Shown here one piece after another: positions 1,608 to 16,933 of a stretch of 64,000 nt of DNA. A model generated the notes under the pieces. The model saw only the letters and a list, made by a program, of their open reading frames with translations, was not told the DNA's origin and ran no database searches. Position numbers and translations under genes: made by a program. The stretch spans positions 137,896-201,895 of the forward strand of contig CBDCWR010000006.1 of the NCBI GenBank assembly GCA_965223385.1, written 5' to 3'. Source of the DNA: Candidatus Multivoraceae bacterium. Its GTDB lineage: Bacteria; Acidobacteriota; Thermoanaerobaculia; Multivoradales; Multivoraceae. Within the stretch, counting starts at the first letter, position 1. The number at the start of each line of letters is the position of its first letter.

Positions 1608-3167
1608 CTAGATCACGGCCTCGATGAGCGACGGCCCCGGCTGCCCGAGCGACGCCTCCAGAGCCCGGTTGAGCTCCTCGGCCGTCGTGGCCTGCCAGGC
1701 GGGCATACCCATCCCCTCGGCCAGCTTCACCCAGCCGATGTCGGGATTGGAGAGGTCGAGCATGCTCATGGCCTTCGGCCCCGGCGAGTGGGCGCCGACG
1801 CGGTCGAACTCGATCTGGAGGATGGCGTACTTGCGGTTGGAGAAGATGACGGTGGTGATGTCCAGCGCCTCGCGCGCCTGTGTCCACAGAGCCTGCACCG
1901 TGTACATGCCGCTGCCGTCCGCCTGCAGGTTGATCACCCGACGATCGGGGCAGGCGACGGCGGCGCCCGTGGCTGCGGGAAGGCCGTAGCCGATGGAGCC
2001 ACCCGTGAGGATGAGCCAGTCGTGGGGTGGGCAGCCCATCGTGGAGAAGTAGGTCCCCGCCCCGGACATGCCGCCTTCGTCCACGACGATGGCGTTCTCC
2101 GGCATGAGGGCGCCGACGGCCGCGCCGATCGTTCGGGGGTCGAGAGCGCCCGTCGGCAGATCGGGCCGCGCGGCGGCAACCAGCTCGGGCTCCGTGCCAC
2201 CGGCACCCACCGCCTCGACCAGCGCCTCGAGCGAGCCTTCGATGTCGCCGTCGCGCTCGACCAGCGTGTGCAGAGTGCAGTCTTCCGGTGTCAGCCAGTT
2301 CGGCTTGTCCGGATAGGCGAAGAAGGTGACGGGCGCCTGCGTGCTGATGAGGACGATGTGCTTCGTGCCGGCGAGCACCTCGGCCGCCTGCTCGCCGAAG
2401 TAGGGCAGGCGCTCGACGTCGACGCGCCCGGCGCCGCGCTCGATGCGCGGCACGAAGGTGTCCATGATCAGGCGGGCGCCGGTCTTCTGCGCCACCCGAT
2501 TCGCCAGCGCCGTACGCTCGGCGGTGAGCGGGCCGTTGATCAGCATGACCGCTGGCTCGCCGTTCATCAGCGCGCGCGCTGCGCCCTCGACCTGGTTGCT
2601 GTCGACCGGCCTGGGTGCCGGAGCGGGGAGTGGCTTGGCGGAGGCGGTCGTGCGGTTCCAGGCGGTGTCGGCCGGCAGGATGAGCGTGGCCACCTGGCCC
2701 GGCGGCGTCAGCGCGGCCTGCACGGCGAGAGCGCCGTCCGCCGCGACGTGGTCGGCCGACTCCGAGGCCCGCACCCAGCCGGAGACAGGCGCCGCAATTC
2801 CGGCGACGTCGGAGCTGAGTGGAGCGTCGTACTGCCGATGGTAGGTGGCGTGGTCGCCCACCACGTTGACGACCGGGGTGCGGGCCTTCTTCGCGTTGTG
2901 GAGATTGGCGAGCCCGTTGCCGAGACCCGGGCCCAGGTGGAGCAACGTTGCGGCCGGCAGCCCTTTCATGCGCGCATACCCGTCCGCCGCGCCTGTGACG
3001 ACCCCCTCGAACAGACCGAGCACGCAGCGCATCTGGGGGTTGGTATCGAGCGCGGCCACGAAGTGCATCTCGGACGTGCCCGGGTTCGTGAAGCAGACGT
3101 CCACTCCGGCGTCGACGAAGGTCTGCACGAGGCTCTCGGCGCCGCTGCGGTCCTGGGCTTCGGTCAT
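1608..3167 (-). CDS. thiamine-diphosphate-dependent enzyme, acetolactate synthase large-subunit-like
   Basis: A 519-aa ORF shows the ThDP Pyr, middle and PP domains (GDGS...N motif near the C-terminus: LQADGSGMYTVQALW...FSNRKY). The sequence AAGGAG sits upstream of the ATG at 3167. Confidence 0.85.
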   Translation of the reverse strand: MTEAQDRSGAESLVQTFVDAGVDVCFTNPGTSEMHFVAALDTNPQMRCVLGLFEGVVTGAADGYARMKGLPAATLLHLGPGLGNGLANLHNAKKARTPVVNVVGDHATYHRQYDAPLSSDVAGIAAPVSGWVRASESADHVAADGALAVQAALTPPGQVATLILPADTAWNRTTASAKPLPAPAPRPVDSNQVEGAARALMNGEPAVMLINGPLTAERTALANRVAQKTGARLIMDTFVPRIERGAGRVDVERLPYFGEQAAEVLAGTKHIVLISTQAPVTFFAYPDKPNWLTPEDCTLHTLVERDGDIEGSLEALVEAVGAGGTEPELVAAARPDLPTGALDPRTIGAAVGALMPENAIVVDEGGMSGAGTYFSTMGCPPHDWLILTGGSIGYGLPAATGAAVACPDRRVINLQADGSGMYTVQALWTQAREALDITTVIFSNRKYAILQIEFDRVGAHSPGPKAMSMLDLSNPDIGWVKLAEGMGMPAWQATTAEELNRALEASLGQPGPSLIEAVI

Positions 3168-3321
3168 GGCGATCTCCTTGAGGGATGGGCTCGGCGTGCT
3201 TTTCTAGCACGCGCGTGCCCTCCCAGGTGGCGTGCCGTCGGTCCAGGGATCGTCGGATCGCCGTTCTGGGGACGTCTATCTCTCCGCGACACCCACAGCG
3301 AGAGGATCGAAGAGGAGTGAC

Positions 3322-3714
3322 ATGACACTTCGGCAGGATCACCACGACATCCGGACGGTGTTCGACGTCGCCCTGGAGAGCATCGTGAACAAAGACTGGG
3401 AGACCTGGGGCGCCCTGTTCACCGAAGACTGCATCTTTCATCCGCCCAACGAGCCTGCGGTGCACGGCCGTAACGCCCTGCGCGACTGGGGCCGCAGTGC
3501 GGGGATCGAGCGCATGACGTGGAGCGATTTCGACGTGCGCGTTCGCGGCGACATGGCCTTCGGCACGAGCGAGGCTGTCCTGCGCTATGACGCCACCGTG
3601 CCGGCGCACGCGTTGGGCGAGGTCTCGGCGAAACAGCTCTGCGTGTTCCAGCGCATCGAAGGGCGGTGGAACGCCGTCGCCGTCAGCTTCAACGCGAGCT
3701 CGCCGCCGGCCTAG
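3322..3714 (+). CDS. SnoaL/NTF2-like (DUF4440-type) small protein
   Basis: The sequence gaggag lies 6 nt before the ATG at 3322. The product is NTF2-like (WETWGALFTEDCIFHPPN...). Confidence 0.6.
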   Translation: MTLRQDHHDIRTVFDVALESIVNKDWETWGALFTEDCIFHPPNEPAVHGRNALRDWGRSAGIERMTWSDFDVRVRGDMAFGTSEAVLRYDATVPAHALGEVSAKQLCVFQRIEGRWNAVAVSFNASSPPA

Positions 3715-3723
3715 GGCGCGGCG

Positions 3724-4233
3724 CTACTCTTCCGGCTCGCCCCAGAACTCGACCATGTAGTCGAAGTAGGGCCCGCGGAGGAAGCCGTGGAAAATCTCGT
3801 TCACGAGGGAGACGCCGCGCCGTGCTGCCGTCTCGAGGGAGCACGAGCTCGCGGTGAGGGTCACCGAGACGTGGCCATTGCGGTTGGTGCAGCGCAGCTC
3901 GATCTCGTGGGGATCGAAGCGCCGATGGGCGGGGAGGTCTGGCTCCGCCTTCGACGCGAGAAAGCGGCGCAGCGCGCGATCCATCTCCGAGGGGTACGGC
4001 ACTCCCGGCAGGAGATCACGAAAGACGACCTGCTGCCGCTGCGCGTCCACATCCACACGGAACGAGGCGCCGGAGAACCAGCGGAAGCGCGCCCGGCCGC
4101 GATGCGTGCCGCGCAGCTCGTCCGCGTATCCCTGGAAGACGCCGCGGCGCGCGTAGTCGCGTAGGGCCTCGAGCGGGGCCGCGGCCGGGTGCGTCGAGGC
4201 GACACCCTCCTCCCTGTGCGCGGTCTCCTCCAT
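3724..4233 (-). CDS. hypothetical protein (possible third gene of cyt c / ThDP-enzyme operon)
   Basis: A 169-aa ORF lies 20 nt downstream of the ThDP-enzyme stop on the same strand. Its composition is not junk-like (YFDYMVEFWGEPEE). I recognise no family. Confidence 0.4.
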   Translation of the reverse strand: MEETAHREEGVASTHPAAAPLEALRDYARRGVFQGYADELRGTHRGRARFRWFSGASFRVDVDAQRQQVVFRDLLPGVPYPSEMDRALRRFLASKAEPDLPAHRRFDPHEIELRCTNRNGHVSVTLTASSCSLETAARRGVSLVNEIFHGFLRGPYFDYMVEFWGEPEE

Positions 4234-4253
4234 GGCCGTCCGTGCCTTGGCGA

Positions 4254-6233
4254 CTAGTGGTAGTACGCCATGCAGCCCGGCTCCACCTTCTGCGGCATGC
4301 CCGGTGGGTACTCGTTGGTCCAGAACTCCTTGATCGCCTGGCAGTTGATCAGCGTCGAGACGCCCTGGTCGGCCGCGAGCCGATAGCTCCGCTCGAGCGC
4401 CTTTTTGAAGTCTTCAGCGCGGTGCACGTACTCGCCGCGCGCGCCGAGGCCTTCGGCGATCTTCTCGTAGCGCAGGTTCTCCTGGAACAGGTACATGTGC
4501 TGGGAGCGCGCGCTCCGGCGCCCCGAGCCCCACACGCCCCAGGCGTTGTTGTTGTACACGACCAGCACCACCGGCAACTTGTACTTGGCCAGCGTCTCGA
4601 TCTCCATGCCCGAGTAGGCGATGCCTGCGTCGCCGGTGATGGCCACGATCGGCGCTCCCTGGTGTGCCTTCTGCACGCCCGCGCCGTTCTGGACCGCCGC
4701 GGCGGCGCCGACCGCGTAGCCGACGTCGGGTCCGATGGCGCCGTACTGGTAGGCACCATTGAGGATCTGGCCCGGCCTCAGTGCCTGCAGATAGCGCCGC
4801 GTCGCGCGTGCGATGCCGTAGCCACCAGACACGACGGTCGTCTGGTCGGCCGGGAGGTCACCGCCGTAGAGCACGTCGGCGAGACCCTGTGCGATCACGA
4901 ACGGGTGCACGCACTCCGCCTTGGCGCTGTGCTGTAGACCAAGCGCCGTGTACTCCTCGTTCTCTTTTTGGAACTTCGCGCGCGCCGCGGCGAGCTCTGC
5001 GCGCCAACTGTCGCGGGAGGTCTTCGGGAGCGCGTTCTCGAGTGCCTCGAGGAAGGCGCGCTCGCCCGCCACGATGCCGAGATCGATCGGCAGATTGCGG
5101 CCGATGTCCTCCGGCTCCGGGTCGACGCGGATGATGCGCGCGTCGGGGTCGAACGCGTACTCCCCGGCGCCCGGCATGCAGTACTGCCCTACGAGGATCA
5201 CGAGGTCGACGGAAAGCAGGGCGTCGGGCGCAACGGAGGCGGACAGCGGGTGATCGTCGGGGAAGTGCCCGCGGCTCGGGCCGGACTCGACCACCGCGAT
5301 GTCCGCCCGTTCGGCGACCGCCCGGAGAGCGTCCCAAGCGCGGTCGTAGAAGCAGCCGGTGCTGGCCACGATCATCGGGCGCTCGGCCGTGCGGATCATC
5401 GCGACGGCCTTCTCGATGTCCTTGGGGCCGGGGTGGGGTTTGTTGTCGCTGCGGTAGCGCGATTTGTCGTAGAAGTACTCCAGGTCTTCGGGGCTCTCGA
5501 AGCGCGCGCGGGCGACCTCGCCGGGAAAGTCGAGGTGGACGGGGCGCGGCACGCCGCTCCGCAGCTGCCGGAAGGCATAGGCGGCGTACTCCCACACCCG
5601 ATTGGGCGTGATGAGGCGCTTGCCCCACTTCTTCAGGCCCTCGGTGGTCGGCTGCTGGTAGCCGCGCTGGATGTTGCGCTCGGTGTCGTCTCCGCCGACC
5701 GTCATGTTGCTCGCGAGCACGAGCAGCGGCGTGCGCGCCGAGTTCGCCGCGCCGATGTTCATGATCATGTTGGTGAAGCCCGGACCTTCGGTGCCCGAGC
5801 AGGCGGCGATCTCACCGCTCGAGCGGATGAAACCGTCGGCCGCGGCACACATGTTGCCCTCGGTGCGGCCGCCGTAGCTCGGGATCCCCTCCGCCGCGAT
5901 CGAGTTGATGACCGTGTAGTTGCCCGGCGCGCAGAAGAGTGCGCCGAGCTCCTCCTCGCGGCAGGCCCGTGCGAAGACCTGGGCGCCGATCATCGGGAAC
6001 TCGGCCGGCGTGGGGGCCTGGGCGCGCGACTCCGGAATCTCGGCGGGGATCTGGATCGGAGGCTCTGTGGTGTCTCCGGCGGCGGCCGCTCCGGCGGCTG
6101 CCAGGGGCGTCGCCTGCGTGGTCGCGAGCGCGGCCACGGCGGCGCCACCCTTGGCCGACGACTCGAGGAAGCCGCGGCGGGAGACCCCGCCGGCCGTCTT
6201 CGCAGGGCTGTTCTGGGTGCCTTTCTTCTTCAT
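4254..6233 (-). CDS. Tat-exported thiamine-diphosphate-dependent enzyme (ALS/POX/benzoylformate decarboxylase superfamily)
   Basis: The internal start MKKKGTQNSPAKTAGGVSRRGFLESSAKGGAAVAALA has the canonical twin-arginine motif SRRGFL. The ThDP domains are present (GTEGPGFTNMIMNIGAA; GDAGIAYSGMEIETL...VVYNNNAWG). A gaggag RBS is present. Confidence 0.85.
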   Translation of the reverse strand: MKKKGTQNSPAKTAGGVSRRGFLESSAKGGAAVAALATTQATPLAAAGAAAAGDTTEPPIQIPAEIPESRAQAPTPAEFPMIGAQVFARACREEELGALFCAPGNYTVINSIAAEGIPSYGGRTEGNMCAAADGFIRSSGEIAACSGTEGPGFTNMIMNIGAANSARTPLLVLASNMTVGGDDTERNIQRGYQQPTTEGLKKWGKRLITPNRVWEYAAYAFRQLRSGVPRPVHLDFPGEVARARFESPEDLEYFYDKSRYRSDNKPHPGPKDIEKAVAMIRTAERPMIVASTGCFYDRAWDALRAVAERADIAVVESGPSRGHFPDDHPLSASVAPDALLSVDLVILVGQYCMPGAGEYAFDPDARIIRVDPEPEDIGRNLPIDLGIVAGERAFLEALENALPKTSRDSWRAELAAARAKFQKENEEYTALGLQHSAKAECVHPFVIAQGLADVLYGGDLPADQTTVVSGGYGIARATRRYLQALRPGQILNGAYQYGAIGPDVGYAVGAAAAVQNGAGVQKAHQGAPIVAITGDAGIAYSGMEIETLAKYKLPVVLVVYNNNAWGVWGSGRRSARSQHMYLFQENLRYEKIAEGLGARGEYVHRAEDFKKALERSYRLAADQGVSTLINCQAIKEFWTNEYPPGMPQKVEPGCMAYYH

Positions 6234-6289
6234 CGCCGGATCTCCTCGTCGGCTGTCCTGTCTCGGGTCTCGTCGGAGGCGCTTCGGAG

Positions 6290-6820
6290 TCAACCGCCGC
6301 CGGCGGGCTCGGGGCGCAGCTGGGCTGGTCCGATGCTCCGCAGGAACTGCACGAGCTGCCAGATCTGGCCGTCCTCCAGCTGCAGCTGGAACGCGGGCAT
6401 GTCGTAGCCGGCCCCTTGCTTGATCGAGCGGAAGATCTCGCCGTCGGTGGCGCCGTAGCGGTACACGTCGGGATTTGTCAGGTCGGTCGCCTCGAAGTCG
6501 AAGTTGTCGAGCGCGCGGCCGTCCTTGCCGTGGCAGTTCTGACACAGGCGAAGGTAGTGCTTCTTGCCCGCCGCGATGGTCTCGGGAACGTAGGGTGCGG
6601 GGTTGGCGACCTCACGCGCCTGCTCCTGGGTGAGCTCCTCGGCGCGCGTGAGCGATGTGGTGTGCCACGTGTGAGGCGCCGTGCCGTGGATGTAGCCGAC
6701 GGCCGCGCAGCGGATGATCGTCGCTTCGAGGCTCGGCGTGCTGTACGCAGGGGGTGGTGAGGTGCACGTCACCAGGAGCGCGCACGCCAGAGCACCGCCG
6801 ACAGTGGACTTCGGACTCAT
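6290..6820 (-). CDS. monohaem c-type cytochrome, secreted or lipoprotein
   Basis: MSPKSTVGGALACALLVTCTSPP is the signal peptide. A single CQNCH haem-binding motif is present. The gene sits 56 nt upstream of the Tat-ThDP enzyme on the same strand. Confidence 0.8.
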   Translation of the reverse strand: MSPKSTVGGALACALLVTCTSPPPAYSTPSLEATIIRCAAVGYIHGTAPHTWHTTSLTRAEELTQEQAREVANPAPYVPETIAAGKKHYLRLCQNCHGKDGRALDNFDFEATDLTNPDVYRYGATDGEIFRSIKQGAGYDMPAFQLQLEDGQIWQLVQFLRSIGPAQLRPEPAGGG

Positions 6821-6999: not shown

Positions 7000-7326
7000 G
7001 TGACCGACAAGATCGTTGCTGCGGTGTGCCACGAGCTGGCGCCCGACGAGAACCAGCTCGAGCCCGATCTTCCGTTCGTGCCCGGCGGCGAGGCTGCGGG
7101 GGTGATCTCGAAGGTCGGGGCTGACGTGCAGGGAATCCGCGCAGGGGACGAGGTGGCGGTGGGCATGCGCTTCGGTGCCTACGCCGAAGCCGTCGACGTG
7201 CCGGCCGGCGCCGTGAGCCCGAAGCCACCCGCCATGAACTTCGCCAAGGCCGCGTCCTACCAGACGGCCTATCTCGCGGCGTACGTGGCTCTCGACCCCG
7301 TCGAAGACGAGGGAGGCTCGCGATGA
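7000..7326 (+). CDS. medium-chain dehydrogenase/reductase N-terminal (GroES-like) domain only; probable gene remnant
   Basis: The sequence PDLPFVPGGEAAGVISKVGADVQGIRAGDEVA...GAYAEAVDVP matches the MDR catalytic domain. The Rossmann domain is absent. The gene overlaps the next gene by 4 bp (ATGA). Confidence 0.45.
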   Translation: MTDKIVAAVCHELAPDENQLEPDLPFVPGGEAAGVISKVGADVQGIRAGDEVAVGMRFGAYAEAVDVPAGAVSPKPPAMNFAKAASYQTAYLAAYVALDPVEDEGGSR

Positions 7327-8443: not shown

Positions 8444-8905
8444 TCAGGGCTGCATCTGGTTCTGGAACGTCGCCATGTCGAAGTAGTCGCGCCAGGCCGC
8501 GATCTTGTCGCCGCGCAGCTCGAACGCGCCCATGACCGGCAGCTCGACCTTCCGCTCGCCGAAGACGAAACGGTCGACGCGCTCGTTGTAGACCATCTTG
8601 CCGGCCTCGGCGCTGCCGAGAACTTCGAACTCCACCGACTGCGCGTTCGTCAGGTAACCGGAGATCGCGGCGCGGATCGCGTCGAGACCCTCCGCCGGAT
8701 CAGTCGGCATGTTGTGGTAGACCGCGTCTTCCGTGAAGAAGCTCATGATCTTCTCGAGATCCTGCGCATCGAACGCAGCCATGAACTCCTCCACGATGCA
8801 GAGCCGACAGGGCTCGTCCTGCTGGGCGAGAGCTGCGGGTGCGGCGACGATCGCCGTCAGCATTGCGAGGGCGCCGACTCGGAGCGGAGCGGGGATCATG
8901 CGCAT
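8444..8905 (-). CDS. secreted SnoaL/NTF2-like protein (limonene-epoxide-hydrolase-like fold)
   Basis: The start MRMIPAPLRVGALAMLTAIVAAPAALA is preceded by aaggagg. The product has an NTF2-like core. The remainder of the longer ORF is Arg-rich junk. Confidence 0.7.
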   Translation of the reverse strand: MRMIPAPLRVGALAMLTAIVAAPAALAQQDEPCRLCIVEEFMAAFDAQDLEKIMSFFTEDAVYHNMPTDPAEGLDAIRAAISGYLTNAQSVEFEVLGSAEAGKMVYNERVDRFVFGERKVELPVMGAFELRGDKIAAWRDYFDMATFQNQMQP

Positions 8906-9002
8906 GAGGCCTCCTTTGGATCTGGCGCGACCGCGTGGTCTTGCCGAGGGATGGTGGGCAGTGTAGCGACCTTCCCGCGAGAGAGCGGCTCGGCGACAGG
9001 CG

Positions 9003-9038: not shown

Positions 9039-9175
9039 AGTAGACTGCTGCTTTCCAGCCAACAGAATTGCTTCCGCGCTCCGATTCCACGGACCGCACT
9101 TGCGCCCCGCCTTCGGCATGATGCGTGGCGGCGCGCCGGATGGCCGGCCGTGGGGAGCTCGGAGAGGAGACCGTC

Positions 9176-11245
9176 ATGAGACGGACGCTTTGGATTCAGG
9201 GCAGTACGGCGCTCGCGATGGCAGCGCTCGGGCTCGGTGCGTGCGCCCCTTCTGCGGACGTTGACGAGCCACCCCAGGAGGTGGCAGCCCAGCGCATCAC
9301 CGCTGCAGACGCCGAGCCAGGGAGCTGGCTCACCCACGGGCGGACGTACTCGGAGCAGCGGTTCTCGCCGCTCGATCAGGTCGACCTCGACTCGGTCGGT
9401 CGTCTGGGTCTCGCCTGGACGTACGACACCGGCAAGCGGCGCGGGCACGAGGCGACACCCCTCGTGGCCGACGGCGTCATGTACTTCACCTCACCGTGGA
9501 GCGTCGTGTACGCGGTCGACGCCGCCACGGGGGAGGAGAAGTGGATCTACGACCCGGACGTTCCGGGCCCCTGGGGCCGCAACGCGTGCTGTGACGTGGT
9601 CAACCGCGGAGTCGCCCTGTGGAAGGGCCACGTCTACCTCGGCACACTCGACGGCCGGCTGGTGAAGATCGACGCCGCGACGGGCGAGCCCGTGTGGGAC
9701 ATCAACACCATCGACCGTGAGCGCCCGTTCACGATCACGGGCGCACCAAGGGTCGTGAAAGGAAAGGTCATCATCGGCAACGGCGGAGCCGAGTACGGAG
9801 TGCGCGGCTACGTCAGCGCCTACGACGCGGACACCGGCGACATGTTGTGGCGCTTCTTCACCGTGCCGGGCGACCCTTCGCTGCCGTTCGAGCACGATGG
9901 CCTCGCCGAGGCGGCGGAGACCTGGAGCGGCGAGTGGTGGCACATCGGCGGCGGCGGCACGGTGTGGGACTCCATGGCCTACGACCCGGAGCTCGACCTC
10001 CTCTACGTCGGCACGGGCAACGGCACTCCCTGGGCGCGCTCGCATCGCAGCCCCGGCGGGGGCGACAACCTCTATCTGGTCTCCATCCTGGCCCTGGATC
10101 CGGACGAGGGGCGTCTGGTGTGGCACTACCAGACGACTCCCGCAGACAACTGGGACTACACGGCGACGCAGCACATCATGCTCGCGGATCTCCAGATCGA
10201 CGGGGAGCCGCGGCAGGTTCTCATGCAGGCGCCGAAGAACGGCTTCTTTTTTGTGCTCGACCGCGCGACGGGTGAGCTGATCTCGGCCGAGAAGTTCGCG
10301 CGGGTGACGTGGGCGACACACGTCGATCTCGAGACCGGGCGGCCCGTCGAGTCGGAGGAGGCCAACTACGACGAGGTGGCCCAGGTGATCTACCCCGGGC
10401 CCGGCGGCGCGCACAACTGGCAGCCGATGGCGTTCCATCCCGGGGAGGGCCTGGTCTACATTCCGGCCCACGATCGGCCGTCCTACTACGGCTTCGACGA
10501 GAACTTCGAATACACGCCGGGCGGCAACTGGAACGTCGGCCTGGGGCTGACGGACGAGGAGATCGCGAACCGTCCACCGATGGAGCGCCGCGCCTTCCTC
10601 CTGGCGTGGGATCCGGTCGCGCAGGAGGCGCGGTGGTCGCACGACCAGCCTTCGGGCTCGAACGGCGGCCTGCTCGCCACCGCCGGAGGCCTCGTCTTCC
10701 AGGGCACATCCGACGGCAAGTTTGCGGCCTACGACGCCGCCAGCGGTGAGCCGGTCTGGGACGTGCAGCTCGACATTCCGGCGCTCGCGCCGCCGGTCTC
10801 CTACGAGATCGACGGAGAGCAGTACGTGAGCATCCTTGCCGGCTTTGGCGGGGGCATCGCGCTCACCAAAGAGACGCAGGGGCGCATGTTCACCTTCAAG
10901 CTGGATGCGAACGAAGAGTTGCCCGAGGTTCCCGATCGGACGCTGGTCGTCGCCGACGTCTTCGAGCCCAGCGGGACCCCCGAGCAGATCGCACGTGGTG
11001 GCCGGCTCTACCAGCGGCACTGCCGCCGCTGTCACAACGGGCGCGGCACCATCACCGATCTGCGTTACTCCCGCGCCGCGGTGCACAACGGCTGGGACTC
11101 CATCGTGCTCGAAGGTCGCTACGGCACCATGGGCATGGACTCGTTTGCCGACGTCTTGACGCCGCGGGATGCGACGGACATCCACCGGTGGGTGATCGCC
11201 CAGATGGAAGAAGCCCGGAGCACTGCGGATGCCGATGGGCGGTGA
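9176..11245 (+). CDS. PQQ-dependent quinohaemoprotein alcohol dehydrogenase (type II ADH: PQQ propeller plus C-terminal cyt c)
   Basis: There is a lipoprotein-like signal (LGLGACAPS) and the vicinal Cys pair NACCDV. The WDYT motif indicates a Ca-type site. The C-terminal CRRCH haem c motif is present. The sequence ggagaggag sits upstream. Confidence 0.9.
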   Translation: MRRTLWIQGSTALAMAALGLGACAPSADVDEPPQEVAAQRITAADAEPGSWLTHGRTYSEQRFSPLDQVDLDSVGRLGLAWTYDTGKRRGHEATPLVADGVMYFTSPWSVVYAVDAATGEEKWIYDPDVPGPWGRNACCDVVNRGVALWKGHVYLGTLDGRLVKIDAATGEPVWDINTIDRERPFTITGAPRVVKGKVIIGNGGAEYGVRGYVSAYDADTGDMLWRFFTVPGDPSLPFEHDGLAEAAETWSGEWWHIGGGGTVWDSMAYDPELDLLYVGTGNGTPWARSHRSPGGGDNLYLVSILALDPDEGRLVWHYQTTPADNWDYTATQHIMLADLQIDGEPRQVLMQAPKNGFFFVLDRATGELISAEKFARVTWATHVDLETGRPVESEEANYDEVAQVIYPGPGGAHNWQPMAFHPGEGLVYIPAHDRPSYYGFDENFEYTPGGNWNVGLGLTDEEIANRPPMERRAFLLAWDPVAQEARWSHDQPSGSNGGLLATAGGLVFQGTSDGKFAAYDAASGEPVWDVQLDIPALAPPVSYEIDGEQYVSILAGFGGGIALTKETQGRMFTFKLDANEELPEVPDRTLVVADVFEPSGTPEQIARGGRLYQRHCRRCHNGRGTITDLRYSRAAVHNGWDSIVLEGRYGTMGMDSFADVLTPRDATDIHRWVIAQMEEARSTADADGR

Positions 11246-13764: not shown

Positions 13765-14166
13765 TCAGCGGAGTGGCGCGACCCGGAGGACCTTGCCGTC
13801 GAGCTGGGCCGCAAGCCCCTGCGACTTGAGGATCGTGGCCAGGGCGTCGGTCCAGCGCACGTCGTGCAGCTCCACGGTCACGGGGCGGCCGCGGACGCTC
13901 GGGTCGAGAACCAGGTTGACGCGCGCGAGCCGGGCGAAGGCGCGGAGCACCTCGGAGAGCTCGGCGTCTTTGAGGCTCAGCGAGATGCGGGCAACCTCCT
14001 GTTGCGCCGGCTTCGGAGCGCGCAGAGTCAGCGTCTGGCCCGAGGCGGAACGATCCGTGGTCTGAGGCGCACACAAGGTCCAGAACAGGACGAGTGCTGT
14101 GGGCAGGAGCGTACATATCGATCGAATTCTATGTCCGGGGCCCACGATAGGCTCACGCGCCCCCAT
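13765..14166 (-). CDS. small STN-domain (secretin/TonB N-terminal) protein; start uncertain
   Basis: ISLSLKDAELSEVLRAFARLARVNLVLDPSVRGRPVTVELHDVRWTDALATILKSQGLAAQLDGKVLRV matches the STN domain consensus well. It has an N-terminal hydrophobic segment. It would overlap the divergent promoter of the ccr-like gene. Confidence 0.4.
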   Translation of the reverse strand: MGAREPIVGPGHRIRSICTLLPTALVLFWTLCAPQTTDRSASGQTLTLRAPKPAQQEVARISLSLKDAELSEVLRAFARLARVNLVLDPSVRGRPVTVELHDVRWTDALATILKSQGLAAQLDGKVLRVAPLR

Positions 14167-14188
14167 CACTCGTACCAAGGAGCTCGCC

Positions 14189-16933
14189 GTGACAAAGGTC
14201 TCTGACGCCATCTGGGAGCTCGGCGCCCTGCCGACGCTCGCACGCCAGGTGCCGGCTTCCATGAAGGCCCTGACCCTTCACCGGGATCGCTACGGCGCCC
14301 CGCGCGACGTCCTGGCCTGCGAGATGGTGGCCGTTCCGCGACTCGGGCCGGCGGATGCGCAGCGTGTCCTCGTGAGCATCCTGGCGAGTGGCCCCAACTT
14401 CAACACGAACTTCGCGGCCCTCGGCCTGCCGGTGCCTGTCTTTCCGCGCGGCGACTCCGAGACCCTCCACATCCCCGGGAGTGACGCGCTCGGCATCGTC
14501 GTCGATGCCGGCCCGGCGGTGGGCTCCGTCAGGGTCGGCCAGGCGGTGATCCTCGACTCCTGGACGGGGAGTACGATCCGAGGCTACGAGACCCACGACG
14601 GCTTCAATGCGCAGTTTGCGGTGGTCGACGAGGAGCGGGCGATTCCCGTTCCGCCGGAGATGCAGGACCAGAGCCCCGAGCAGCTGGCCGCGATGCTGCT
14701 CACCTACGGAACGGCGTACCGCTGCGTCGTCGAGCGGCTGCGCTTCCAGCCCGGGCAGTCGATGCTGGTCCTCGGTGGCGGCAAGGGCACGAGCTACGCG
14801 GGAGCACAGATCGCCAAGGCGCTGGGCGGTCGCGTCGTGCTCATGGGCTCGAATCCGGACCTTGGCGCCGAGCTCATCGAGCGCGGGGTCGCCGACGCGT
14901 TCGTGAACCGTCGCGAGATCCCGCGGGAGGTGTACGGCGTGCTCGAGGAGGGCGAGAGCCACGCGGAGTGGATCGCGCGCACGCAACCCTTCCGCGACGC
15001 CATCTTCGATGCCAACGAGGGTCAGCCGGTCGACAAGGTGTTCGAGCACACCGGGGGCAAGAACTTCCCGCTCCTGGCGTCGGTGCTGTCGGACGGCGGC
15101 GGTTTGGCCTTCTTCGGCGCCACCGGGCAGGGTCTCAAGGGGGAGTACAAGGAGACCTTCTTCTACGACCACCGGCGCTTCGTGCTCGACGCGCGCTGGG
15201 TGTGGATGCGCCAGAAGCAGGTACTGTTCCGCCAGGCGGAGCCTGGGGAGATCTTCCGGGAGATTGGCCTGCTTCCCGGCCGTCGGGGGCTCATCTGGGG
15301 GGCCGATGCATACGCGCTGAGCTTTGCGAAAGCGGCGCGCGAGCGCCAGGCCGACCTCGCGGTGATCGCCTCGCACAGCGAGGAGGCGGATGGGATCGAG
15401 CGGATGGTGGAGCTTGGAGTCGAGCGTGCCCACATCCTCGACCGGGACACCTTCACGCTGGTGTCGGACATGCCGGACCCTCTGCTCGAGGAAGGCACGC
15501 CCAACCCGGCCTACGACCGCGACTTCATGGGCGCCGCCAAGGCGATCGGTCGTGCGATCTGGGGTGTCTTCGGACCGCGCGTCAGCCCCGACTTCATCGT
15601 GGAGCGGCCGGATCAGAGCACGCTGCACTACAGCACGTTTCTGGCGCGCGACTTCGATGAGAACGACGCCATGCCGACCGGCTTCGTGGTGGCACGAGGT
15701 GCGAGTGACCTCGACGTGCTCGGCTCGCACATGTACCACGCCTCGCAGGCGCGCGAGGTCGTGCGCCTGCTGGCGGAGAAGCGCATCGTCATGCAGCAGG
15801 AAGATCTCGACATCGTCTCGCTGGCCGAGCTGCCCGAGGTGCAGCAGAAGATGCTCGACGGCACGATGGAGAAGCCGAAAGGAGTCGCGCTGGTCCAGGC
15901 CGACCGCGCCGGGAGGCCGATCTCCGAATACGAAGCCGCCTACCTGGGGGACGTCGTGCAGGAGTCGGATCCGCAGGCCGGCCAGTTCATCGACGTGCGG
16001 GTCCTGCACGGCACGGCGCTGGTCACGCTCGACCGCCCGGCGGCGCTGAACGCTCTGAGCGAGGAGCTTCTGGCGCAGCTCGGCGCGGTCGTACGCGACG
16101 TCTCCAGCTCAGGGGCGCTTGGAGGCAAAGAGGTCGCCTCGATGATCGTGCGCGGCGCCGGGCGCGCCTTCGTCGCCGGTGCGGACATCCAGGTGTTCAT
16201 AGGCAAGACGGCAGCGCAGCTCGAGACGCTCGCGGCCGACAACATGGCCGTCTTCTCGGCGCTCGAGGAGCTTCCCATTCCCGTGGTCTCGCTGATCGAC
16301 GGCTTTGCGCTCGGCGGCGGGAACGAGCTCGCGATGGCGACCCACTACCGGATCGTCACGGAGAACGCGGCTCTGGGCCAACCCGAGGTGAAGCTGGGGA
16401 TCATCCCCGGCTACGGCGGGATGCAGCGGCTGCCCCGGCTCGTGGGGCCGCGCAAGGCCGCCGAGCTCTCGGTCAACGGCGAATCGATCGGCCCGGACGA
16501 GGCGGTTGCACTGGGTCTGGCGCACGAGACCTGCCCTTCGAGCACGGCGCTCGCGCGGGCGTTTGTGGTGGCGCAGGCCATGGCACGAGGCGAGATGGAC
16601 GTCGAGCGCGCCGACTGGGGTGCCCTCGCCGCTGCGCAGCAGGGCGCCATGGCGGCCCTCCTCGCGGACGCGGACGTTGCGGACCTCATGTCCTCGGAGC
16701 CTCCGGCGAAGGTCCAGGCGCAGGATCTCGTCGCCGCCCGTCGTTACGCTGCGCGCATCGCGCTCGAGGCGCTCCGGGACGGCTACGGCCTGGACTTTCC
16801 GCAGGGTCTCGCGAACGATGCGCGGCTCTTTGGCGAGGTCACGGCGTCACCCTCGGGGCAGTGCTGGGCCGGTAAGTTCCTCGCCAAGGCGCCCGAGCAG
16901 TCCTCCTTCCTGACGCTCCTCGACTCGCGCTAG
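14189..16933 (+). CDS. crotonyl-CoA carboxylase/reductase-like MDR enoyl reductase fused to C-terminal enoyl-CoA hydratase (crotonase) domain
   Basis: GTG start with an aaggag RBS. The N-terminus (VSDAIWELGALP...MKALTLHRD...SGPNFNTNFAALG...HIPGSDALGIVVDAGPAV) matches Ccr. The Rossmann motif is VLGGGKGTSYAG. The C-terminal ~260 aa are classic crotonase (AFVAGADIQ; GFALGGGNELAM; GIIPGYGGMQRLPRLVG). Confidence 0.85.
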   Translation: MTKVSDAIWELGALPTLARQVPASMKALTLHRDRYGAPRDVLACEMVAVPRLGPADAQRVLVSILASGPNFNTNFAALGLPVPVFPRGDSETLHIPGSDALGIVVDAGPAVGSVRVGQAVILDSWTGSTIRGYETHDGFNAQFAVVDEERAIPVPPEMQDQSPEQLAAMLLTYGTAYRCVVERLRFQPGQSMLVLGGGKGTSYAGAQIAKALGGRVVLMGSNPDLGAELIERGVADAFVNRREIPREVYGVLEEGESHAEWIARTQPFRDAIFDANEGQPVDKVFEHTGGKNFPLLASVLSDGGGLAFFGATGQGLKGEYKETFFYDHRRFVLDARWVWMRQKQVLFRQAEPGEIFREIGLLPGRRGLIWGADAYALSFAKAARERQADLAVIASHSEEADGIERMVELGVERAHILDRDTFTLVSDMPDPLLEEGTPNPAYDRDFMGAAKAIGRAIWGVFGPRVSPDFIVERPDQSTLHYSTFLARDFDENDAMPTGFVVARGASDLDVLGSHMYHASQAREVVRLLAEKRIVMQQEDLDIVSLAELPEVQQKMLDGTMEKPKGVALVQADRAGRPISEYEAAYLGDVVQESDPQAGQFIDVRVLHGTALVTLDRPAALNALSEELLAQLGAVVRDVSSSGALGGKEVASMIVRGAGRAFVAGADIQVFIGKTAAQLETLAADNMAVFSALEELPIPVVSLIDGFALGGGNELAMATHYRIVTENAALGQPEVKLGIIPGYGGMQRLPRLVGPRKAAELSVNGESIGPDEAVALGLAHETCPSSTALARAFVVAQAMARGEMDVERADWGALAAAQQGAMAALLADADVADLMSSEPPAKVQAQDLVAARRYAARIALEALRDGYGLDFPQGLANDARLFGEVTASPSGQCWAGKFLAKAPEQSSFLTLLDSR

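Follow-up and report, generated by a model that had tools for sequence, protein, structure and literature searches.

Three consecutive genes on the minus strand of the DNA analysed here encode a monohaem cytochrome c, an enzyme dependent on thiamine diphosphate (ThDP) that carries a twin-arginine translocation (Tat) signal, and a small protein without a Pfam family. The DNA is a 64,000-nucleotide stretch of contig CBDCWR010000006.1 from a Candidatus Multivoraceae bacterium, referred to below as the window, and coordinates given without a locus name are counted from its first letter. We propose that the three genes form one self-contained periplasmic enzyme system, and we would put the probability of this reading at about 0.5. 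Tat export of the enzyme and its co-location with the cytochrome in the periplasm have strong comparative support and, judging from the sequences of many relatives, are highly probable. An oxidative mechanism with the cytochrome as electron acceptor is suggested by the linkage of the genes, and here we see the odds as roughly even. An earlier note on this DNA had named a periplasmic ThDP-dependent oxidoreductase; the periplasmic part of that claim is borne out by the comparisons described below, while the evidence for the cytochrome as acceptor is its gene linkage. To our knowledge, ThDP enzymes have been treated as cytoplasmic or organellar catalysts, and ThDP is not on the usual list of cofactors of Tat substrates. 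The earlier note did not recognise the arrangement, and indeed our full-text literature search turned up no account of a ThDP enzyme that is periplasmic or exported by Tat, and none of a ThDP enzyme paired with a cytochrome c. The three genes are the following:

6290..6820, minus strand: cytochrome c gene, monohaem class I, 176 aa, with an N-terminal export segment (Pfam)
4254..6233, minus strand: ThDP-dependent enzyme gene, 659 aa, PYR-TH3-PP domains plus an N-terminal Tat signal (Pfam and predicted fold)
3724..4233, minus strand: accessory protein gene, 169 aa, lacking a signal peptide and a Pfam family, with a basic isoelectric point (pI)

All three open reading frames (ORFs) are present as described in the earlier note. 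They are closely spaced, with 56 nt between the stop codon of the cytochrome gene and the start of the ThDP gene, and 20 nt between the stop codon of the latter and the start of the small gene; a scan for promoters and terminators gave nothing useful. About 80 residues precede the first domain of the enzyme, and they comprise a lysine-rich start, the SRRGFL motif, a stretch rich in Ala and Gly that contains AxA sites, and a linker rich in Pro and Glu:

6075..6233, minus strand: twin-arginine signal peptide, roughly residues 1-53 (conservation of RR and AxA)
6165..6182, minus strand: SRRGFL, residues 18-23, a motif of the (S/T)-R-R-x-F-L-K type
5991..6074, minus strand: Pro/Glu-rich linker IxIPxExPxxxAEAPxPAxFPM, about residues 54-81, the mature N-terminus (consensus of A1, an alignment of 32 sequences)

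A protein search returned more than 1,900 relatives of the enzyme, and the signal statistics were taken from the best 120 of these, which are 66-100% identical to it and about 650 aa long. The twin arginines already noticed in the window lie within the first 60 residues in 119 of the 120 homologues (median position 14), the single exception being an N-terminally truncated gene call. An AxA site follows the RR pair in 119/119, and the h-region is moderately hydrophobic, with a mean hydropathy of 0.91. Across positions 1-62 of alignment A1, R19 and R20 are the only invariant residues and F22 is nearly invariant, while the rest drifts. An RR pair that remains invariant within a freely drifting segment is what a functional Tat signal should show, and it is not what a mis-called start would produce. 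The alternative, in which the true start lies downstream of the RR and the enzyme is cytoplasmic, draws on the fact that high-GC genomes have long spurious ORF extensions, and the ORF here can itself be extended to 763 aa. However, the next in-frame Met after the start is residue 81, the 80 residues before it are conserved in frame in more than 100 homologues (including the RR, the IxIPxExP linker and FPM), and a GAGGAGA ribosome-binding site stands just upstream of the ATG at 6233. A downstream start, which the earlier note had named as grounds for refuting its own proposal, thus appears very improbable. In a family member with 42% identity (locus L087, 1..330), the RR seems absent only because the metagenome contig carries a frameshift; read in the upstream frame, the sequence is MEKKNGISRRDFF, with the motif ISRRDFF. 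As a separate observation, one related locus (L086, 7375..11493) has tatA three genes downstream of the trio; there, Ubie_methyltran, no-Pfam and ABC1/UbiB genes lie upstream of the trio, and PRA-PH and TatA_B_E matches downstream.

The earlier note had proposed a search for the same synteny in other genomes, and the trio does recur, across four phyla and in two gene orders. Scanning one genome per GTDB species, we found at least 540 loci with the ThDP enzyme. Host groups, read from the best 80 of these, include Acidobacteriota (Thermoanaerobaculia, Candidatus Multivorans, Holophagales, Bryobacterales, Vicinamibacteraceae and Terriglobia), Gammaproteobacteria (OM182 and Pseudohongiella), Gemmatimonadota and Sumerlaeota, and among the carriers are Acidobacteriota of soil and sludge, sponge symbionts, and marine OM182 and Pseudohongiella. 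A cytochrome homologue lies directly upstream of the ThDP gene on the same strand in 78 of 83 loci, and a homologue of the small protein directly downstream in 77; the loci that deviate stop at a contig end, contain a single inserted gene, or belong to one Bryobacterales lineage with a displaced cytochrome gene. The reverse search, from the small protein into metagenome contigs, gave 80 loci, with the ThDP gene immediately upstream in 64 of the 75 that have enough upstream sequence, and one or two genes away in most of the remainder. In at least 11 loci the genes follow a second order, in which the ThDP gene is followed by zero to two genes, then by the small gene and the cytochrome gene. Linkage that persists through such rearrangement argues for a functional unit far more strongly than inherited synteny would. 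One locus with this second order (L159, 284..4992; also L156 and L167) encodes, in sequence, a Tat-ThDP enzyme, a 242-aa unknown protein, a 305-aa ORF, the small protein and the cytochrome c.

The cytochrome itself matches Pfam Cytochrome_CBB3 (1.7e-11) and Cytochrom_C, it has an N-terminal hydrophobic segment, and its best solved relatives are the haem domains of CcoP. Two features define its haem site:

6530..6544, minus strand: single haem c site CQNCH, cytochrome residues 93-97 (from the sequence)
6398..6400, minus strand: codon of the axial ligand Met141, in DMP (from the sequence)

Both are kept throughout the family, with CQxCH and [DE]MP each present in 81/81 homologues, of which 80 are monohaem. 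The sole exception is a tandem dihaem cytochrome with two CQQCH motifs in a metagenome-assembled genome of Sumerlaeota (L056, 5086..5949), and two relatives of 273-276 aa were also seen in the protein search. A homologue scoring 101 bits (45% identity) is still part of a trio, and those scoring 62 and 46 bits stand in unrelated contexts. The orthologue group of the cytochrome thus appears to be dedicated to the ThDP enzyme down to about 45% identity.

The assignment of the 659-aa protein to the acetolactate synthase (ALS)/pyruvate oxidase superfamily, made earlier from the translation, is confirmed by Pfam, with TPP_enzyme_N (residues 82-189), TPP_enzyme_M (273-398) and TPP_enzyme_C (477-629) all above the gathering score. 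Both hallmarks of the superfamily are intact, namely the Glu of the PYR domain and a motif of the GDG-X24-27-N(N) type:

5859..5861, minus strand: codon of the catalytic Glu125, for ThDP activation (invariant in A1; aligns with the RHE(Q/E) Glu of PoxB, IlvI and Oxc)
4545..4634, minus strand: ThDP/Mg2+ motif GDAG...NNN (GDA-X24-NNN), residues 534-563 (G534, D535, N561, N562 and N563 invariant)
4254..4337, minus strand: C-terminal tail ending VEPGCMAYYH, plus the stop codon (48% of columns invariant)

Within the superfamily of ThDP decarboxylases, the enzyme belongs to none of the curated families. No NCBIfam model reaches its cut-off, the best score being 179 bits where cut-offs are about 500-900; the models for oxalyl-CoA decarboxylase (OXC) and 2-hydroxyacyl-CoA lyase (HACL) all stay below (PRK09259, 167.9 against 557; TIGR03254, 158 against 739.4; HdaclCoAlyACT, 130.6 against 600), as does the pyruvate oxidase model TIGR02720 (99.9 bits against 637.85). 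Public annotation of the relatives reads just 'thiamine pyrophosphate-binding protein'. The closest solved relatives by sequence are HKA synthase (4e-49) and the OXC and 2-hydroxyacyl-CoA lyase/synthase structures (1e-39 to 1e-43), followed by benzaldehyde lyase (BAL)/formolase (1e-36), glyoxylate carboligase (1e-25), PoxB (3ey9, 1e-16) and pyruvate oxidase (1pox, 1e-15). An AlphaFold2 (AF2) model agrees with structures of 2-hydroxyacyl-CoA synthase, OXC, BAL and glyoxylate carboligase at a template modelling (TM) score of about 0.8. In this model the overall predicted local distance difference test (pLDDT) score is 74.6, with 80-97 in most of the ordered segments of the three domains. The score is below 50 up to residue 61, and the linker is predicted to be disordered; it may serve as a binding site for the small protein or the cytochrome. 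The tail, residues 643-659, likewise has low pLDDT and, by analogy, is probably a mobile active-site lid, as are the C-terminal tails of Oxc and PoxB.

The exported enzymes form, on sequence identity, a sharply bounded clade at 42% identity and above. When 1.84 billion cluster representatives were searched exhaustively, the N-terminal extension was present in every full-length member (58, 53 and 42% identity), and the next relatives, at 35% identity or less, are about 550 aa long, start directly at the PYR domain and have no extension. One paralogue on a Rhizobium leguminosarum plasmid (L084, NZ_CP071629.1, 6905..8746; 613 aa, 50.7% identity over residues 81-659) is informative in this respect, as the signal peptide, the cytochrome and the small gene are all missing together. 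It sits among two short-chain dehydrogenase/reductase genes, a non-ribosomal peptide synthetase, a TauD-family dioxygenase and an AMP-binding protein, a recruitment of the scaffold to cytoplasmic secondary metabolism. In a rough neighbour-joining tree, computed without bootstrap, it is nested inside the exported clade beside a Tat-bearing member, and this position suggests a secondary loss of export. The joint loss ties the small protein and the cytochrome to export or periplasmic function and not to ThDP catalysis as such.

A paralogous ALS-like gene had also been reported close to the trio. The gene exists (1608..3167; NCBIfam PRK07586, 777 bits), but it is no meaningful paralogue, since its matches to the exported enzyme are short and local (36 bits) and it is absent from all 87 related loci examined; it is only a remote relative within the superfamily.

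What cofactors the enzyme uses besides ThDP bears directly on how electrons could leave it. The TH3 middle domain is conserved as much as the PP domain (majority fraction 0.81 each). Across the superfamily, this domain usually shows the lowest conservation of the three and provides the binding site for ADP, FAD (flavin adenine dinucleotide) or an effector (PMC3534367). Conservation at the level of PP therefore points to constraint on TH3 by a ligand or a partner. The earlier note had suggested that FAD binding by this domain be checked by profile and structure comparison, and the outcome points away from FAD: the enzyme is closest to relatives that are non-redox and flavin-free, and a loop is missing. 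The Escherichia coli FAD enzymes PoxB, Gcl and IlvI share a segment of 8-9 residues after the HPLS-type strand (GMTGLIGFS, GMVGLQTAHRY and GMLGMHGTY), and in an alignment with these three and with Oxc this GM-G--G segment is missing both from the exported family and from Oxc, which binds ADP. In the structures of acetohydroxyacid synthase, this segment lines the site of flavin and herbicide binding. Where the first strand of the middle domain ends, S-T-G stands in place of the G-x-G, with Gly293 invariant. Taken together, the sequence comparison makes FAD in the enzyme unlikely. No CxxC or CxxCH motif that might mark a second redox centre occurs in the enzyme, and its C-terminal Cys654 is not conserved in distant members.

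These observations also weigh on the possibility that the enzyme works in the manner of PoxB, with an FAD in the middle domain that takes two electrons from hydroxyalkyl-ThDP and passes them singly to the cytochrome, which would make the system a periplasmic pyruvate:cytochrome c oxidoreductase. There is precedent for the flavin step in PoxB and pyruvate oxidase, both recognisable as relatives, and the unusual conservation of the middle domain would fit, as would the invariant Gly293, which closes the first strand at the place of the G-x-G in nucleotide binders. However, the enzyme, like Oxc, lacks the loop common to PoxB, Gcl and IlvI, the first Gly of the G-x-G is replaced by Ser, the RFDDR-type segment is shortened, and in both sequence and fold the enzyme is nearer to OXC, HACL and BAL than to PoxB, pyruvate oxidase or ALS. 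We consider a PoxB-like relay quite improbable.

A different possibility, and the main rival, is that the enzyme is not a redox enzyme at all. It would then be a lyase, decarboxylase or carboligase acting on carbonyl compounds of the periplasm, and the cytochrome would be co-transcribed for some other reason, for example to serve other periplasmic dehydrogenases or in a regulatory or structural role. The nearest characterised relatives are indeed non-redox and flavin-free or ADP-binding, the flavin-associated loop is missing, the cytoplasmic paralogue functions without a cytochrome, and dehydrogenases dependent on pyrroloquinoline quinone (PQQ) are recurrent neighbours, found in the window (9125..11245), at 9 of 87 loci and at the P0382 locus. 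On the other hand, the orthologue group of this cytochrome occurs only with the ThDP enzyme, in two gene orders and four phyla; most loci have no PQQ dehydrogenase, and the one in the window already has a haem c domain of its own; and the trio contains no other candidate redox enzyme. On balance we regard a non-redox role as rather unlikely. Since the periplasm is not known to contain CoA esters, acyl-CoA chemistry would be excluded for the enzyme if it is exported, and what the nearest relatives do is not simply transferable to it.

Several points have nevertheless to be set against an oxidative system that uses the cytochrome as acceptor. With the GM-G--G loop missing, a relay through flavin is unlikely, and we know of no precedent in the superfamily for direct transfer from ThDP to haem. 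The closest solved relatives (HKA synthase, OXC/HACL and BAL) are non-redox, and the Rhizobium paralogue shows that the scaffold can work without a cytochrome. The mature enzyme has a median pI of 5.9 and the cytochrome one of 5.2; both are thus acidic, and simple electrostatic docking is not favoured. No cytochrome-ThDP fusion protein was found among the searched homologues, nor was a fusion of the small protein with the ThDP enzyme. Across the 87 related loci and the 80 flanking genes from 20 diverse loci, no universal neighbour gene accompanies the trio. Lastly, gene content, motifs, signal conservation and the three-way linkage are shown by the sequences, while we infer export, complex formation, electron transfer (direct or via a nucleotide cofactor), the nature of the substrate and what the small protein does.

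With these reservations, the oxidative reading, which is the best supported, comprises a sequence of steps. The 659-aa protein would fold in the cytoplasm, bind ThDP and Mg2+, and dimerise, as ThDP sites lie at dimer interfaces in the superfamily, and the 169-aa protein would act on the enzyme at this assembly stage, also in the cytoplasm. The cofactor-loaded enzyme would then be exported by Tat, while the cytochrome would cross separately by the Sec pathway and receive its haem in the periplasm. There, the enzyme would attack a carbonyl substrate, which could be a 2-oxo acid, an aldehyde, an acyloin or a diketone, and the cytochrome would oxidise the ThDP-bound carbanion/enamine in two one-electron steps to acyl-ThDP. 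Hydrolysis would release a carboxylic acid, and the electrons would be fed into the aerobic respiratory chain. One-electron acceptors, among them ferricyanide, 2,6-dichlorophenolindophenol (DCPIP) and the Fe-S clusters of pyruvate:ferredoxin oxidoreductase, oxidise ThDP enamines readily; a haem in this role would be new for the superfamily. In its most specific form, the proposal would be a flavin-free ThDP respiratory dehydrogenase that passes electrons from the carbanion directly to a c-haem and is exported as a loaded oligomer by a new Tat chaperone with a fold like that of type III chaperones; we regard this version as rather improbable.

The small protein had been described in the earlier note as a small hypothetical gene following the enzyme. 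It is indeed located downstream, but its role was understated, as it is an integral third component that is kept as tightly as the cytochrome. The protein has no match in Pfam, NCBIfam or the sequences of the PDB. Its homologues share a conserved C-terminal GPYxxYMVxxFxEPEE and one invariant motif:

3913..3933, minus strand: invariant PxHRRxD of the small protein (homologue conservation)

It is basic (median pI 9.6) and the least conserved of the three proteins (33-55% identity), and none of about 30 aligned homologues has a signal peptide, from which it is predicted to be cytoplasmic. The fold is closest to cytoplasmic secretion chaperones and YbjN proteins, although the match is weak (Foldseek E ~0.01). 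By analogy with these, the small protein could be a dedicated cytoplasmic chaperone for export or assembly that grips the acidic linker beside the Tat signal, an assignment we put forward tentatively. Such a model would parallel the chaperone-binding domains that follow type III signals. Class I type III secretion chaperones and YbjN have an alpha-beta-beta-beta-alpha-beta-beta-alpha sandwich, a fold that the small protein may share; class I chaperones are small and encoded beside their client, and the small gene does adjoin a candidate client, but they are acidic (pI ~4-5) where the protein here has a median pI of 9.6, and no type III secretion system is involved. The protein has no sequence or fold similarity to the Tat proofreading chaperones TorD/DmsD and NapD.

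A possible alternative, compatible with the proposed oxidative system, is that the small protein is a structural subunit without a signal of its own, which is carried through Tat as a hitch-hiker and bridges the acidic enzyme and the acidic cytochrome. The absence of a signal peptide and the basic pI would suit this role, the small gene adjoins the cytochrome gene in the second gene order, and it is missing beside the cytochrome-less cytoplasmic paralogue. Hitch-hiking through Tat also has precedent, as it is established for hydrogenases. It is likewise established for PaoABC (PMC4273604). Against a hitch-hiking subunit stand the fold, which is closest to chaperones and YbjN proteins of the cytoplasm, and the low conservation of the protein, as is often found for chaperones; we slightly favour the chaperone role.

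In its logic, the trio resembles known periplasmic dehydrogenase-cytochrome c systems, flavocytochromes among them. It is set apart by a catalytic subunit that uses ThDP and bears the Tat signal itself, and by an accessory protein from a new family. Fructose dehydrogenase, gluconate 2-dehydrogenase and glucoside 3-dehydrogenase likewise have genes for a catalytic subunit, a cytochrome c and a small subunit, and these complexes are Tat-dependent and feed periplasmic oxidation into the respiratory chain. They differ in that their catalytic subunit is an FAD protein of the GMC type, their cytochrome is trihaem and membrane-bound, and the Tat signal is on the small subunit, whereas here a ThDP catalytic subunit carries its own signal, the cytochrome is monohaem and the small protein is signal-less. 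Fructose dehydrogenase is described in PMC8601194. The sulfite dehydrogenases of the SorAB type offer a further parallel. These also combine a Tat-exported, cofactor-loaded subunit with a small Sec-exported monohaem cytochrome c encoded next to it; they differ in using molybdopterin instead of ThDP and in having no third small protein. For the chemistry, pyruvate:ferredoxin oxidoreductase offers precedent for a flavin-free one-electron oxidation of hydroxyalkyl-ThDP by a nearby metal centre, but it belongs to another ThDP fold family, is cytoplasmic, uses Fe-S clusters and not haem, and has no sequence relationship to the enzyme here.

Among the members of its own superfamily, the enzyme shares with PoxB and the Lactobacillus pyruvate oxidase the three-domain architecture and, probably, a functional C-terminal tail, and with PoxB, if our proposal holds, an oxidative decarboxylation in which electrons pass from the ThDP intermediate to the respiratory chain. 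PoxB is a pyruvate:quinone oxidoreductase (3ey9 was deposited as 'pyruvate dehydrogenase [cytochrome]') that is cytoplasmic and peripheral to the membrane, contains FAD and reduces ubiquinone; the enzyme here is only 20% identical to it, lacks the flavin-associated loop, and has a Tat signal and a cytochrome c partner. The best matches in sequence and fold are found in the group of OXC, 2-hydroxyacyl-CoA lyase/synthase, BAL and HKA synthase (BbmA), and the shortened middle-domain loops are common to Oxc and the enzyme here. Identity to this group is only 21-25%, however, and its members, non-redox enzymes of the cytoplasm or the peroxisome that in many cases use CoA esters, have no signal peptide, cytochrome or small partner. 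A literature search on BbmA, the closest solved relative, returned nothing relevant.

If the proposal is correct, C-C bond cleavage or decarboxylation coupled to oxidation would join the periplasmic respiratory toolkit, and Tat would be shown to export a dimer loaded non-covalently with ThDP. A function would be assigned to a gene trio of at least 540 species-level genomes, whose hosts could oxidise extracellular 2-oxo acids, aldehydes or keto-sugars without uptake, a route that would matter for carbon turnover. With the small protein, a new family of accessory factors in Tat export or in assembly of the complex would be defined, and the enzyme might be usable as a ThDP biocatalyst that can be linked to an electrode.

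The genes around the trio give some leads on the substrate. None of the neighbours in the window that could have indicated one (the ALS-like gene and the SnoaL, GNAT-like, limonene-1,2-epoxide-hydrolase-like and alpha/beta hydrolase genes) recurs in the 87 related loci. The neighbours that do recur are periplasmic or secreted hydrolases and PQQ dehydrogenases, the latter not universally. A Pfam scan of the 80 flanking genes from the 20 diverse loci found Cyclase (PF04199) in 8, epoxide hydrolase in 6, amidohydrolase in 6 and PQQ in 2, all restricted to particular lineages. Bryobacterales loci have a Cyclase-family lipoprotein, sometimes between the cytochrome and the enzyme, together with amidohydrolase and epoxide hydrolase genes. 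In two loci (L046, 4893..5696; L069, 4794..5600) an ORF of 267-268 aa with a lipoprotein-like N-terminus lies on the opposite strand between the cytochrome and ThDP genes, a position that matches that of the Cyclase neighbours. The Cyclase family includes isatin hydrolase and kynurenine formamidase, and the products of these enzymes include aryl-glyoxylates, which makes these neighbours a possible substrate lead. More generally, the neighbours hint weakly at carbonyl products of periplasmic hydrolysis or oxidation as substrates.

The window itself holds several further genes near the trio. Genes of the SnoaL/NTF2 fold flank it on either side (8444..8965, minus strand, and 3232..3714, plus strand), neither of them conserved in related loci; one of the two is limonene-1,2-epoxide-hydrolase-like, with an N-terminal hydrophobic segment. 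An alpha/beta hydrolase gene is also present. On the plus strand, 7000..7326 encodes a 108-aa ORF with only the second half of ADH_N (GroES-like), apparently the remains of a truncated zinc-type dehydrogenase or quinone oxidoreductase, and it is followed directly by a 367-aa ORF with a marginal GNAT match. The PQQ dehydrogenase gene of the window (9125..11245, plus strand), 2.3 kb from the trio, encodes a quinohaemoprotein alcohol dehydrogenase (TIGR03075, 647 bits) whose haem c domain is C-terminal. Further along the plus strand, a 944-aa ORF (14099..16933) combines ADH_N and ADH_zinc_N with a C-terminal enoyl-CoA hydratase domain, an unusual fusion.

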